A stretch of 20,659 nucleotides of DNA from a virus. Its lineage: Duplodnaviria; Heunggongvirae; Uroviricota; Caudoviricetes. Below are positions 16,325-20,659 of this stretch, one piece after another. The stretch spans positions 1 to 20,659 of the IMG/VR virus record IMGVR_UViG_2778261527_000010; one strand, written 5' to 3'. The position numbers and the translations under genes are program-made. The first letter of the stretch is position 1. Each line of letters begins with the position of its first letter. The notes under the pieces were generated by a model that saw nothing but the letters and a program-made list of their open reading frames with translations, did not search any database and was not told the origin of the DNA.

Positions 16325-16450
16325 TCATGATTGGACGGTGTAAGGACAACACCAACAAAAACAGGAAGTTAGCAGTCTCAGCAGGACACCGACCAGACGG
16401 TGAGGAGACAAAAAAGGATACGCAAAGGAGCCGCGGCTCTCGAGTGACAC

Positions 16451-16480
16451 AAAAGCCCGCTTATGCGGGCTTTTTGTTTT
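16451..16480 (+). terminator. rho-independent terminator
   Basis: aaaagcccgc-ttat-gcgggc followed by tttttgttttt. Confidence 0.6.
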
Positions 16481-16557
16481 TCCCTTAAGTTCCTAGCCGC
16501 TTATCTATAACTATGGAAAAATGTTAACCCTGACTGTATGTTAACAAAGGGATGTAT

Positions 16558-17765
16558 ATGTCGGTTTTTCATAACTGGCTGCTTGATATCGCAAGCGGGA
16601 ATTACTTTATCTACATCAAACGCCTTTCTGCAAACGACACAGGCGCAACAGGTGGCCATCAGGTCGGACTTTATATCCCCTCAAATATCGTTGAAAAGCT
16701 TTTTCCATCTATCAATCATACTCGCGAACTGAACCCTTCAGTCTTCCTTACTGCGCATGTATCATCCCATGATTGCCCTGATACCCAAGCACGCGCAATT
16801 TATTACAACAACCGTTATTTTGGTAAGACCCGAAACGAAAAAAGAATTACGCGCTGGGGGAGAGGAAGTCCATTACAGAACCCTGAAAATACAGGAGCCC
16901 TCACAATTCTTGCTTTCAGGTTAAACGAACAGAACACTGACTGTTCCGAGGTAGATATATGGGTCTGCGTCAATCCCGATGAAGAGGATATCATCGAGTC
17001 TGCTATTGGCGAAATCATACCTGGAACCCTAATTTCCGGCCCTGCCGGACAAATTTTGGGCGGATTGTCTCTTCAGCAAACTCCAGTAAATCATAAATAT
17101 GTTATTCCTGAAGACTGGAAGAAGCGTTTTCCTTCTGGAAACGAAATTATTCAATATGCTGCTGGCCATTATGCTAAAAACTCCAAGGATCCAGATGAGC
17201 AACTGATTGACCGTCGGCGTGTCGAGTATGATATTTTCTACTCGTCGAGGAATTACATGTTCTTGATATTATTAAGAAAGGATTCGATTCTGTAGATGAG
17301 TTTATTGCATTAGCCAACTCTGTCAGTAATCGACGTAAATCAAGGGCAGGCAAATCACTTGAACTTCACCTAGAGAAGCTTTTTATCGAGCACGGACTAC
17401 GGCATTTCTCCACTCAGGCAGTTACTGAAGGTAATAAAAAACCAGATTTCCTGTTTCCTTCAGCAGAGGCATATCATAACGTTGAATTTCCTGTAGAAAA
17501 CTTACGTATGCTGGCAGTAAAGACCACCTGCAAAGATCGCTGGCGTCAGATACTGAATGAAGCAGATAAAATCCATCAGGTACATTTATTTACACTGCAA
17601 GAAGGTGTTTCTTCAGCACAATACCGAGAAATGAAAGATGCGGGTGTCAGACTCGTTGTACCATCAACTTTACATAAAAAATACCCAGAAGCAGTTAGAG
17701 AAGAATTAATAACGCTCGGAGCATTCATTACTGAGCTGATAGAGCTTTACGCTGAACTATCATAG
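16558..17765 (+). pseudogene. EcoRII-family (CCWGG-type) restriction endonuclease gene, disrupted by a 1-nt frameshift near 17234-17238
   Basis: N-terminus MSVFHNWLL..YIKRLSANDTGATGGHQVGLYIPS matches EcoRII as I recall it; frame 0 stops at 17293-17295 (246 aa); homologous sequence continues in the +2 frame from 17238 (LLVEELHVLDIIKKGF...) to stop at 17763-17765. Confidence 0.8.
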
Positions 17766-17770
17766 GCTGA

Positions 17771-17793
17771 CTCCCGGCTTAAAAGGCCGGGAG
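17771..17793. terminator. bidirectional hairpin between convergent R and M genes
   Basis: ctcccggc-ttaaaag-gccgggag perfect 8-bp stem. Confidence 0.5.
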
Positions 17794-17799
17794 ATGTTC

Positions 17800-19233
17800 T
17801 CAAGGCTGCCCAGTCTTACCAGCATCAGCAGAAACAGCTTTGAGGATATAGGGTTCCAGAAGTCTGGCAACAGCTTCAAATACTGGCACCACAACTGAGT
17901 TACCGAACTGCCGATATGACTGAGTATCTGAAACCGGAATACGGAATGGTTTCCCTCCAGGTTTTTCAAATCCCATAAGGCGTGCGCACTCTCGGGGAGT
18001 CAGCCTGCGTGGTCGACGAGCCTGATTACTCTCATTCATAAAGTCAGCCTCTCCCGTTGCCATATCCCAACCACGATCAATAAGAATTTCTGATCCGTCT
18101 TTGTGATATCTGGCAGAAAGTGTGCGTGCAATGCTTTCCTTATTCTCAGGATTGACCAACCCAAAGCCAAAACCATTCCCCTTGGCTGCATGCTTTTTGG
18201 CGTAGTTATAAAGGTACTCCCATAGTTTTGGCGTAAGTATATATTTACTGTCGACTACAGGCTCCAGCAATTCACCAAATGATGGGCGGTGTTCCGGATA
18301 AAAACGACTGATATCACGCAAGGTAAACCCCTTGTGAATATTCAGATCTCGTCTAAATCCGACCAGAACAATACGTTCACGATGCTGAGGCAAAAAATGC
18401 TTCCCATCGATAATCTTTGGATCGTTTTTTCCCATTTCTGCAGCATCGGCAACTTCGTAGCCCAGCTCGTCAAGGGTCTCCATAATGACTTTGAAAGTTT
18501 TACCCTTATCATGGCTCTTCAGATTTTTGACATTTTCCAGCACAAAAATTGCCGGTTTTTTTGCTCGTATAATACGTGCCACGTCAAAAAAAAGTGTTCC
18601 TTGTGCTTCACATTCAAAACCATGCGCACGACCAAGTGAGTTTTTCTTACTAACACCAGCAAGGCTAAATGGCTGGCACGGGAACCCCGCAAGAAGCACA
18701 TCATGATCCGGCACATGCTCATCAATATATGCATAAGCATCCGTTTCCAATACATCGGTTTTATCACTCAGCGTGACTTCCCGAATATCGAGATTGAATT
18801 TATGCACCTGTTCATCGTTAAACCAGTTGGCCTTGTATGTACGCACAGCATCTTTATTCCATTCACTGGTAAAAACACACTGGCCTCCAATGGCCTCAAA
18901 ACCTTTCCGTATCCCTCCAATTCCAGCAAATAAGTCAATGAAGCGGAAAGCATATTCCGGATGGTTTGCAGGTGGTTCTGGTAGCATCTTACGCAGAAGA
19001 GACTCTTCTACTGAAGTCAACGATTTTGGTAAACACTTGCCATTAATCCAGCGGTTAATGGTTTCACGGCTCCACTCATTTTTTCCGACTTTTCTCAGTA
19101 ATTCAGCCACATACTTCTGATCATAGATTTCCAGCACTTTCTCGATAAGCTTTTTATCATTTTCCTGTCGCAGCTTTTCTTCCGCCTCGGCTTCCTTCAG
19201 CAGATGCTGTGCCAACACTTCAAATTCAGACAT
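17800..19233 (-). CDS. DNA (cytosine-5) methyltransferase, M.EcoRII/Dcm-like (477 aa)
   Basis: C5-MTase motifs [36 protein letters not shown]; collinear with M.EcoRII as I recall it; GGAGG RBS 5 nt before ATG 19233 (ORF track start at 19275 is probably too long). Confidence 0.9.
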
Positions 19234-19639
19234 AATTCCTCCAAGGGGTCTAATGGGTGAAACTTTATCACTCATTCAACCCAGAAGGAAATGTTTTATC
19301 TGGATATTTAAACAGTGACTACAACGTAATCTAGCACTGGTGATGCTTTGTTAGGCATAGAGAATCATTCTATATACGACTAATGACAGAAAAACAGCAG
19401 ACAAGTAGTTTGTTCATAAATTAACGCATACTATGTGTCTACGGTTTTCGAGACCGGTCCAATCATCAAACGAAACATAAAATTAGCTCACATTATGAGG
19501 AAAAGTATCTTTTTTGTACTATGTAAATTCAAAGGCTTAGCCTCATTTCTCCGATGGTTTTCTCAACACTACTGGTTGTGAGCCCTTGCAATGATCATTA
19601 ATATACGTCTCACAAATAATTCTTCATAGATATTGCAAA

Positions 19640-20413
19640 ATGGATATTACTGAGTTTCCTTCTGGAGTAATTGAACACCTTGGCTGGTATGTATACCGAT
19701 TGATTGATCCGAGGGACGGAAGCACCTTCTATGTAGGGAAAGGCAAAGGTAACCGCGTATTTGCCCATATGCGCGGTGAAGTGGCAGCGACTGATGATGA
19801 CGAGTTACTGAGCAACAAGCTAAAGCAAATTAGAGAAATAAGGTTAGCAGGACTTGAAGTTATCCATGTCATCCATCGACACGGAATGACTGATGAAAAG
19901 ACGGCGTACGAAGTTGAAGCAGCACTTATTGATGCCTACCCTGGGTTAACGAATATCATGAATGGTGCTGGCAGCAATGAATTCGGCGCCGCGCATGTCA
20001 AAGAGTTGATAGCAACATATCAGCCCGAAACCATAACATTTCATCATAAAGCATTAATGATATCCGTTAACAGAAGTGCAAAGGATTCAGAGCTTTATGA
20101 TGCGGTTCGATTTAGCTGGCGCATTAATGTCTCTCGCGCCAGCCAAGCAGAAATCATTCTTGCTACTGTAAGAGGGATCGTTCGAGGGGTTTTCATTGCT
20201 GATAAATGGCTCAAATCAACACGTGAAAATTTCCCTTCGTTGAAATACTGGGACGAGGATCCTGACTTTGAGGCAACACAAAGTTCGCGCTATGGTTTTG
20301 AAGGTCGAGAAGCCCCACCTGAAATAGCAAATCTTTATCTTGGAAAAAAAATACCAGATGAATTAAGAAAAAAAGGAGCTATGTCCCCGGTCCGTTACTC
20401 ACCTAATTTTTGA
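19640..20413 (+). CDS. hypothetical protein with N-terminal GIY-YIG-like nuclease domain (257 aa)
   Basis: GWYVYRL ... [10 protein letters not shown] ... [11 protein letters not shown] ... TNIMNG fits the GIY / YIG / Arg / Glu / Asn order of GIY-YIG domains; ~150-aa C-terminal region of unknown function. Confidence 0.5.
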
Positions 20414-20435
20414 GTCTTTAAGTGATAAGCATAAA

Positions 20436-20480
20436 CCGCAGCACGTCATGCATACGTCGTGTCTGCGGTTTTTCTTTTTT
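20436..20480 (+). terminator. rho-independent terminator after the GIY-YIG-like gene
   Basis: Long imperfect hairpin ccgcagcacg...cgtgtctgcgg followed by tttttctttttt. Confidence 0.5.
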
Positions 20481-20482
20481 GC

Positions 20483-20659
20483 TTACACGGTGTCTGGTTC
20501 TTCTGGCCACTCAATATCCGGTGCAGTTGATGTATCAACACGGTTCAGCAACACCCGATACTTTTTCCAGGCTTCCAGCAATGAGGTTTCTTCCTCCGTT
20601 GCGATTTCCAGATCTACAGCATCCTGAAGTGGCGCAATATGCTCACTGGCTACCTGCAT
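20483..20659 (-). CDS. tfa: tail-fibre assembly protein, C-terminal part (partial; 5' end beyond window)
   Basis: Translation ...[45 protein letters not shown]... typical of Tfa C-termini of E. coli prophages. Confidence 0.75.

Follow-up and report, generated by a model that had tools for sequence, protein, structure and literature searches.

EcoRII-type and PD-T4-3/CMoRE genes at the probable ssrA-proximal end of a lambdoid prophage, in tandem with a P2-like remnant

Results

Features of the tmRNA locus

The window, the whole stretch of DNA analysed here, comprises the 20,659 nucleotides (nt) of the virus record IMGVR_UViG_2778261527_000010. It opens with ssrA, the gene for transfer-messenger RNA (tmRNA), and our subject is the segment at its other end (16325-20659), which holds a restriction–modification (R-M) pair, a GIY-YIG nuclease gene and the 3′ end of the tail-fibre assembly gene tfa. 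An original prediction, made from the sequence alone, had listed a terminator and these genes beyond a right attachment site (attR) and had assigned them to a second prophage, next to which a 186-like phage had integrated. All of the listed contents are present where they were placed. The features, in order, are:

40-402, plus strand: ssrA, the intact tmRNA gene, the integration target shared by the elements (ARAGORN, tag ANDENYALAA; Rfam RF00023, 295.8 bits)
403-16278, no strand assigned: P2/Fels-2/186-like deletion remnant between ssrA and the probable second prophage (Pfam)
16279-16324, plus strand: second, displaced copy (46 nt) of the ssrA 3′ end, which is both attR for the P2-like element and the ssrA part of the lambdoid left attachment site (attL)
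16325-16481, plus strand: type A trailer, a phage-borne copy of the DNA downstream of ssrA, with a rho-independent terminator at its end (terminator scan, alignment)
16558-17765, plus strand: EcoRII-type type IIE restriction endonuclease, here a pseudogene (Pfam EcoRII-N and EcoRII-C on two open reading frames, ORFs)
17800-19233 (or 19275), minus strand: C5 cytosine methyltransferase of the Dcm/M.EcoRII type, intact (Pfam DNA_methylase and DNA_meth_N)
19640-20413, plus strand: predicted PD-T4-3/CMoRE, with a GIY-YIG N-terminal and a modification-sensing C-terminal domain (PADLOC, PDB 9U75)
20436-20479, no strand assigned: imperfect hairpin and T-run between the convergent PD-T4-3 and tfa genes (read from the sequence)
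20483-20659, minus strand: 3′ end of tfa, a lambdoid tail-fibre assembly gene (Pfam Caudo_TAP, E 1e-27)

The proximal end of the array is a full-length tmRNA gene, called by both ARAGORN and Rfam. Its 3′ end recurs as a direct repeat of 46 nt (358-403 and 16279-16324, one mismatch), so that within the window the P2-like element is flanked by two ssrA 3′ ends, the second of which scores as a partial tmRNA in Rfam. The mismatch is at position 16299, an A in the displaced copy and a G in the functional gene and in all other attR copies sampled, and is a private mutation in a non-functional copy. In several other strains the displaced copy has lost a T (CCAGC-CCACCA in L006, L008 and L011, by our own numbering of the loci compared). 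A search of 16325-20659 for a further ssrA repeat found none, and G+C is between 0.39 and 0.45 throughout this segment.

The segment continues into lambdoid tail genes

Exact-sequence look-up of the 411-residue protein encoded at 14929-16164 identified a draft contig (CAJGHK010000023.1, assembly GCA_904810445.1; L010) that is 100% identical to window positions 4929-20659 (15,731 nt, no mismatch) and extends 5.5 kb past the window. It stems from the strain of the window or from one that cannot be told apart from it. Right of 20659, and always on the minus strand, it completes tfa (194 aa) and goes on with a tail fibre of 1132 aa, lom and the beginning of J. The tfa fragment in the window corresponds to the last 58 codons (profile positions 76-130 of 131), and the gene reaches about 21067 in window coordinates. 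The body of a second prophage had been predicted past the window, with the R-M and GIY-YIG genes as its morons, and the rightward extension bears this out: prophage genes and not core genes follow 20659, and tfa is not an isolated relic.

We then looked for the segment in 5426 complete Escherichia coli genomes, which do not include the genome of the window itself; 243 of them contain at least 80% of window 16200-20659. One strain lacking the 186-like insert is G749 (NZ_CP014488.1 2766732-2813100; L002), in which the island lies directly after ssrA, with no P2-like element, and a complete lambdoid prophage stands behind it. Over 4381 nt the G749 island departs from the window's at two places: a G replaces A16299, and there is one insertion or deletion. 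Past the island come the tail, head, terminase and lysis genes, Q and the repressor region, in that order. The integrase (L002 21272-22444) is next, separated by two small genes from another copy of the ssrA 3′ end (L002 24080-24104), and a trailer of type B and the core gene glaH complete the series. The further ssrA 3′-end repeat that had been foreseen is therefore present in this relative, but was not seen within the 5.5 kb of the draft contig. G749 and the window share the R protein (WP_000110239.1, split in the window), the methyltransferase (WP_001288444.1) and PD-T4-3 (WP_000355482.1); they differ in that R is intact in G749 and the P2-like element is missing there. The two small genes between integrase and distal attachment (att) site (L002 22458-23646) match PHROG 5176 and PHROG 17809, with no PADLOC match, and this gap is a second cargo slot, analogous to the slot between integrase and attR in the P2-like element.

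In the window, G749 and the draft contig alike, no ssrA or att repeat parts cargo and tfa, which places the R-M and GIY-YIG genes inside the prophage boundaries, in the position of the lambda b region. The lambdoid b-region arrangement that had been proposed thus stands, the boundaries in G749 enclosing the cargo. We could identify the genes, delimit the elements, follow the segment into tail genes and find, in relatives, a whole prophage that has a distal att repeat. It is very probable that the segment 16325-20659 forms that end of a lambdoid prophage which lies nearest ssrA, at the tmRNA 3′ end, with the P2-like element in tandem.

Several observations weigh against this. The lambdoid body right of tfa is just 96.5% identical to that of G749, which makes it a relative and not the same prophage, and the integrase end and distal repeat were seen in G749 and not in the 5.5 kb past the window; the lambdoid integrase has been observed in G749 and in the Citrobacter phage phiNP described below. 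In strain 442/2, the sole complete genome with the same junction between P2-like element and island, the lambdoid body has been removed by IS3, copies of which cut the GIY-YIG gene, and given this strain a truncated prophage is possible at the locus of the window itself. Finally, the structure fits either order of arrival of the two elements, the 46-nt displaced copy containing the 27-31-nt lambdoid core.

An EcoRII-type pair with a split nuclease gene

The restriction gene of the pair is divided between an EcoRII-N ORF (16552/16558-17295, Pfam E 1e-61) and an EcoRII-C ORF (17508-17765, E 5e-32). The split is due to a deletion of 1 nt, four Ts at 17234-17237 standing where G749 has five, and the frame shifts after the N-terminal effector domain; the same split calls are found in the draft contig. 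EcoRII-N and EcoRII-C are accordingly not on a single polypeptide in the window, in contrast to the intact G749 allele (402 aa), which matches EcoRII (PDB 1NA6) over residues 1-401 with an E of 1e-242 and 808 bits. Judged by its sequence, the window gene is a pseudogene of an EcoRII family member. The R-M pair of the original prediction is therefore there, but not as an intact pair, since with R frameshifted the nuclease would be inactive and the methyltransferase an orphan.

The methyltransferase gene is convergent with R across a gap of 34 nt, and its product is annotated as 477 aa in G749. It matches DNA_methylase (E 5e-78), the Dcm subfamily model NCBIfam NF007772 (927 bits) and PADLOC MTase_II (E 4e-230). 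Recognition of CCWGG would be expected from the close match to EcoRII and Dcm, and the enzyme is presumably active in this strain. The system resembles EcoRII (PDB 1NA6; type IIE, CCWGG) in its two-domain R, its Dcm-type M with DNA_meth_N and its convergent genes. Unlike EcoRII, it is prophage-borne, and with R frameshifted only M can be functional.

A PD-T4-3/CMoRE gene beside tfa

The whole of the GIY-YIG protein aligns with the PADLOC model PD-T4-3 (residues 1-256 on model positions 1-255 of 256, E 7.6e-140), and 250 of 257 residues (97%) are identical to CMoRE of E. coli O157:H7 (PDB 9U75). CMoRE is the new name of PD-T4-3, a type IV restriction endonuclease that degrades DNA containing 5-hydroxymethylcytosine (hmC) or glucosyl-5-hydroxymethylcytosine (ghmC), leaves 5-methylcytosine (5mC) and plain cytosine DNA uncut and protects against T-even phages (PMC12923530). 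By homology, then, the gene is PD-T4-3/CMoRE, predicted to encode a single-gene type IV nuclease specific for hmC/ghmC DNA. There is no difference of substance from CMoRE (PDB 9U75, 9U7U). An acidic run has been kept at the aligned position, as DDDE in the window and DDDD in 9U75. It would seem likely that this run is the published autoinhibitory loop, the residues of which are not numbered in the text of the paper. PD-T4-3 is active in a native clinical isolate (bioRxiv 10.1101/2024.12.20.629700), and it is presumably active in this strain too. As CMoRE is indifferent to 5mC, it would be compatible with a neighbouring cytosine methyltransferase.

The flanking tfa strand also carries a match to the Rfam model IS009 (20526-20659, minus strand, 157.5 bits), which is above the gathering score, is cut by the window end and lies wholly inside the tfa coding sequence, on its coding strand. 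In effect, this 'sRNA' model appears to represent the conserved 3′ end of tfa.

A phage-borne ssrA trailer

Past the ssrA core lie about 150 nt that occur in three versions, 88-92% identical to one another. Type A adjoins the R-M pair, in the window and at the G749 attL. Type B, 91% identical to type A, is found at the G749 distal att site and in L006, and in both runs unbroken into the core DNA on the glaH side. Type C adjoins ypjA, an arrangement that K-12 shows past its psaA ssrA pseudogene. Because type B is contiguous with core DNA it is native, and type A is accordingly the one that came with the lambdoid. The 'native' copy may itself be a relic arm of an older element. In the window the trailer ends in a terminator (16451-16481) with a stem of 10 pairs (16451-16474) followed by a T-run. 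The terminator of the original prediction is thus confirmed, though not as merely adjacent DNA: it is part of the phage-borne ssrA trailer, which presumably doubles as att arm and terminator of ssrA.

Support for the type A trailer being phage-borne comes from the layout of phiNP (OR565852.1). Its integrase gene has 83% DNA identity to that of the G749 lambdoid, and its ssrA 3′ core leads into a trailer 87% identical to window 16300-16439, then into cargo and then into tfa on the opposite strand. It differs in its cargo (DinI-like, HicAB, acetyltransferase), in its terminator hairpin and in a tail module with baseplate-type annotations. The phiNP record was apparently built from prophage ends, the core being duplicated at the join. 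We had considered phage Ayreon as the model of a free-phage attachment site (attP) and set it aside in favour of phiNP; Ayreon has homologues of the trailer and of the tfa-proximal region, but no ssrA 3′ core by the trailer, and so does not qualify as an ssrA attP. In this free lambdoid (MF807953.1, L014 6001-6114) the trailer homologue, about 86-87.5% identical, lies between the integrase and the side tail fibre, and it looks like the trace of a past recombination with a prophage at ssrA.

The trailer is strongly conserved among the three E. coli versions and phiNP (window 16325-16450, L002 24105-24230, L025 23973-24137, L027 26-165), with compensatory changes in two hairpins: GGAGCCGCGGCTCC against GGAGTCGCGACTCC, and GCCCGC..GCGGGC against GCCCAC..GTGGGC in the terminator. 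Its fold has a modest z-score of -2.6. A permissive Rfam search for a known RNA in the trailer gave just the partial tmRNA and sub-threshold terminator-like matches. A 53-aa ORF at 16327-16488 was rejected as a gene, being not conserved; in the type B trailer it stops after 15 codons.

The cassette at thrW and other sites

By exact-sequence look-up, the GIY-YIG protein is always found by lambdoid tail-fibre genes, but not always at ssrA. In ETEC4090 a lambdoid prophage occupies thrW, its integrase abutting the tRNA-Thr gene, and its other end, by yagP/paoD, has the same R, M and GIY-YIG proteins. Copies away from ssrA start with the last 24-28 nt of ssrA and a type A trailer; their left end is fused to another copy of the hairpin found after tfa (compare 20436-20479), and GCGG(G/T)T is the microhomology at the join. 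Such copies, at thrW or beside P4-type integrases, were seen at L021 6655-6900, L016 5456-5700, L023 6656-6900 and L028 about 3995-4240. A cassette at thrW with a relic of the ssrA core shows that the core, the trailer and the defence genes form a phage-carried block and not a fixture of the ssrA locus.

It is possible that prophages at thrW and other sites contain in this way a secondary ssrA-type att site. The att-type sequence inside lambdoids at thrW (24-28 nt of ssrA core with trailer) recalls the 'prophages integrating into prophages' (PMC8112680). Unlike those, no element was seen integrated in the internal copy, which looks like a relic moved by recombination. A wider proposal is that the ssrA core, the trailer of about 150 nt, the EcoRII-type R-M genes and PD-T4-3 make up a portable b-region cassette and that the trailer is functional in its own right, which we consider rather doubtful. 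Such a cassette would move between lambdoids by recombination at tfa and the conserved tfa-downstream hairpin, and would plant ssrA-like secondary att sites in prophages, for example at thrW, where ssrA-targeting phages could land. The trailer may be functional on account of its conservation across E. coli and phiNP, in which two hairpins have changed in a compensatory way; in that case it could hold integrase/Xis arm sites or an RNA 3′ of tmRNA and be more than passenger DNA.

Assembly of the array and the order of arrival

Elements that target ssrA have a copy of the 3′ end of the gene in attP, and on integration an intact ssrA is rebuilt from the bacterial 5′ part and the phage 3′ part, the original 3′ fragment ending up at the far side of the element. 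The lambdoid family brings in addition the trailer of about 150 nt with its terminator (16325-16481) and, between trailer and tfa in the b-region position, a cargo predicted to be a defence in two parts. The EcoRII-type pair would cut unmodified DNA at CCWGG, the nuclease being frameshifted here, and PD-T4-3/CMoRE would cut the hmC/ghmC DNA of T-even phages that escapes ordinary restriction. With the Fels-2/186-like P2-family element set between the intact ssrA and the lambdoid by the 46-nt repeats, the result would be a tandem, or 'piggy-back', array.

To see how often the two elements meet, the junction (window 16166-16760) was used as a query against the complete genomes. The island follows ssrA directly in about 129 of them and follows the P2-like attR in one, strain 442/2. 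The P2-like lineage with the identical 411-aa protein stands at ssrA before other contexts (ypjA, islands with P4-type integrases, bare glaH), and as the island occurs elsewhere without it, both elements would be independently mobile. In every tandem array sampled the P2-like element is the one next to ssrA. The lambdoid distal att site keeps about 27-31 nt of ssrA, compared with the 46 nt of the P2-like repeat. The G/A difference at 16299 had been tried as a marker of the crossover and of the order, and is silent on the order, the other P2-like attR copies all having G. Nor did we find the same deletion between the gpT and portal fragments with another downstream context: the look-up of LmuA gave just intact or differently deleted relatives, and the complete genomes just one junction, 92.8% identical and differently spaced.

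On this distribution the lambdoid probably arrived first and the P2-like element then entered the rebuilt ssrA. The original prediction had likewise called the lambdoid the older element, with the P2-family phage using the reconstituted gene; the counts of about 129 and 1 favour it, and the structure, which fits either order, does not decide it. Were the P2-like element to have come first, with the lambdoid entering the 46-nt displaced copy at its attR, the same final structure would result, as the block of identity between lambdoid and ssrA (27-31 nt, from the G749 attR) lies within that copy. The same P2-like variant (99.7% identical over 11.5 kb) is also found before ypjA, and the degraded state of the P2-like element does not suggest a recent arrival. 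We nevertheless hold this opposite order to be unlikely. About 129 complete genomes without the P2-like element have practically the same island (2 differences in 4381 nt), and a single one has the joint junction. The invariable place of the P2-like element next to ssrA in the sampled tandems would, moreover, be expected if it needed the full 46-nt target, which the intact gene alone offers when another element already occupies the site. Homologous recombination, through transduction or conjugation, could also have imported a segment of ssrA and P2-like element into a strain already carrying the lambdoid, with no site-specific integration there. There is homology on both flanks (ssrA and upstream core on one, the ssrA 3′ core and trailer on the other, the trailer types being about 90% identical), and the defective P2-like element may not have been a free phage on arrival. 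Such an import seems improbable. No positive evidence points to it, site-specific integration would produce precisely the junction seen at 16279-16324, and the element may have suffered its internal deletion after integrating.

Two further explanations would remove the lambdoid prophage or the junction itself. If the R-M and GIY-YIG genes were an independent, non-phage defence islet at ssrA and tfa an isolated relic, the persistence of the island in 442/2 without a lambdoid body would be understood, as would the absence of the cassette from the sequenced free phages of the collection. The loss in 442/2 is, however, explained by the flanking IS3 copies; the draft contig runs on into the full tfa, the tail fibre, lom and J, there is no att repeat on the way from cargo to tfa, and the cassette is always attached to lambdoid tail-fibre genes, at thrW included, which makes the islet highly improbable. 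A false join in assembly across the repeated ssrA 3′ end is more improbable still. The contig does belong to a draft assembly, and at 46 nt the repeat is short, but typical reads and k-mers are longer than this, the two copies differ at 16299, the same junction of P2-like element and island is present in the complete genome of 442/2, and the contig occurs in three samples.

The P2-like remnant and its other genes

Pfam identifies in the left neighbour (403-16278) Ogr, gpD, gpU, a truncated portal protein, gpA, a CI repressor and an integrase, the last a tyrosine integrase at 13908-14924. Klebsiella P2-like phages and Felsduovirus match its early region at 94% identity, and directly after ssrA the element has a terminator of its own (411-438) that differs from that of the trailer. 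The late side is reduced to ogr, gpD, gpU and fragments of gpT (3576-3983) and of the portal gene (4004-4399), which abut at a deletion junction near 3983-4004. The capsid, terminase and lysis genes have gone, and with them most of the tail genes; in intact relatives, portal, terminase, capsid and lysis genes are present. The element, 15.9 kb in size, is a defective deletion remnant and not a phage. Of the 186-like phage said to have integrated in tandem, the tandem arrangement therefore stands on the 46-nt repeats and the word phage does not. Independent deletions of the P2-like element were seen in other strains (L006, L007, L031).

The remnant has further genes of interest. A Lamassu pair (4440-7167, minus strand) occupies the hotspot of the P2 tin/old type in DNA of low G+C (0.31-0.34) and consists of LmuB (E 9e-254) and an LmuA of the Cap4-nuclease type (E 4e-143). 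Between the integrase and attR lies the low-G+C ORF of 411 aa (14929-16164, plus strand), which matches only PHROG 7835 (function unknown) and has no Pfam, PADLOC or NCBIfam match. In relatives this slot is occupied by an anti-phage dCTP deaminase, by GapS1, by an HNH endonuclease, by a SNIPE-domain protein or by an AAA+DUF4276 pair, which makes the ORF a candidate uncharacterised defence gene; it is probably the most novel item in the window. Between the P2-like attL and ogr there is in addition a reverse-transcriptase ORF of 257 aa (511-1284, minus strand; RVT_1, E 2e-21), with weak matches to several retron-type reverse-transcriptase models, which may be truncated.

Discussion

The classic description of tandem integration at the tmRNA gene is said to be that of Williams (2003, 'Traffic at the tmRNA gene'). 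Tandem prophages at one att site are well documented, as is the use of the ssrA 3′ end by several unrelated integrase-bearing elements, with the gene rebuilt and a partial 3′ copy left distally (PMC1635311; PMC3603311). The fusion of a bacterial 5′ part with a phage 3′ part of the target has been documented, and the att core can extend 3′ of the tRNA or tmRNA gene (PMC1635311; PMC3603311). In E. coli and Salmonella no integration hotspots are more diverse than the tmRNA and tRNA-Thr sites (PMC3603311). Our array does not differ in kind from known 'piggy-back' integration at the tmRNA gene. It is set apart from the known tandems by its pairing of a Fels-2-like remnant with an EcoRII/PD-T4-3 lambdoid, which is rare (one of the 5426 complete genomes). 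Nothing here lies outside known kinds: prophages stacked at a known hotspot are already known, and EcoRII and CMoRE have both been characterised structurally and biochemically.

The main value of the analysis is the correct annotation of the segment as the cargo end of a lambdoid prophage, with two cargo functions that are already characterised. It adds, modestly, the genomic home of PD-T4-3/CMoRE, beside an EcoRII-type R-M system in the b region of lambdoids at ssrA and thrW. Neither 'prophage' nor 'EcoRII' occurs as a word in the main text of the CMoRE paper, and a home in the lambdoid b region is not discussed there (PMC12923530). The pairing would bring together a nuclease against unmodified DNA and one against the hmC/ghmC DNA that escapes it. 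A single tmRNA locus would in this way stack defences from two elements, Lamassu in the P2-like remnant and the EcoRII-type methyltransferase with PD-T4-3 in the lambdoid, and the reverse-transcriptase ORF and the uncharacterised 411-aa gene of the remnant are further candidates.

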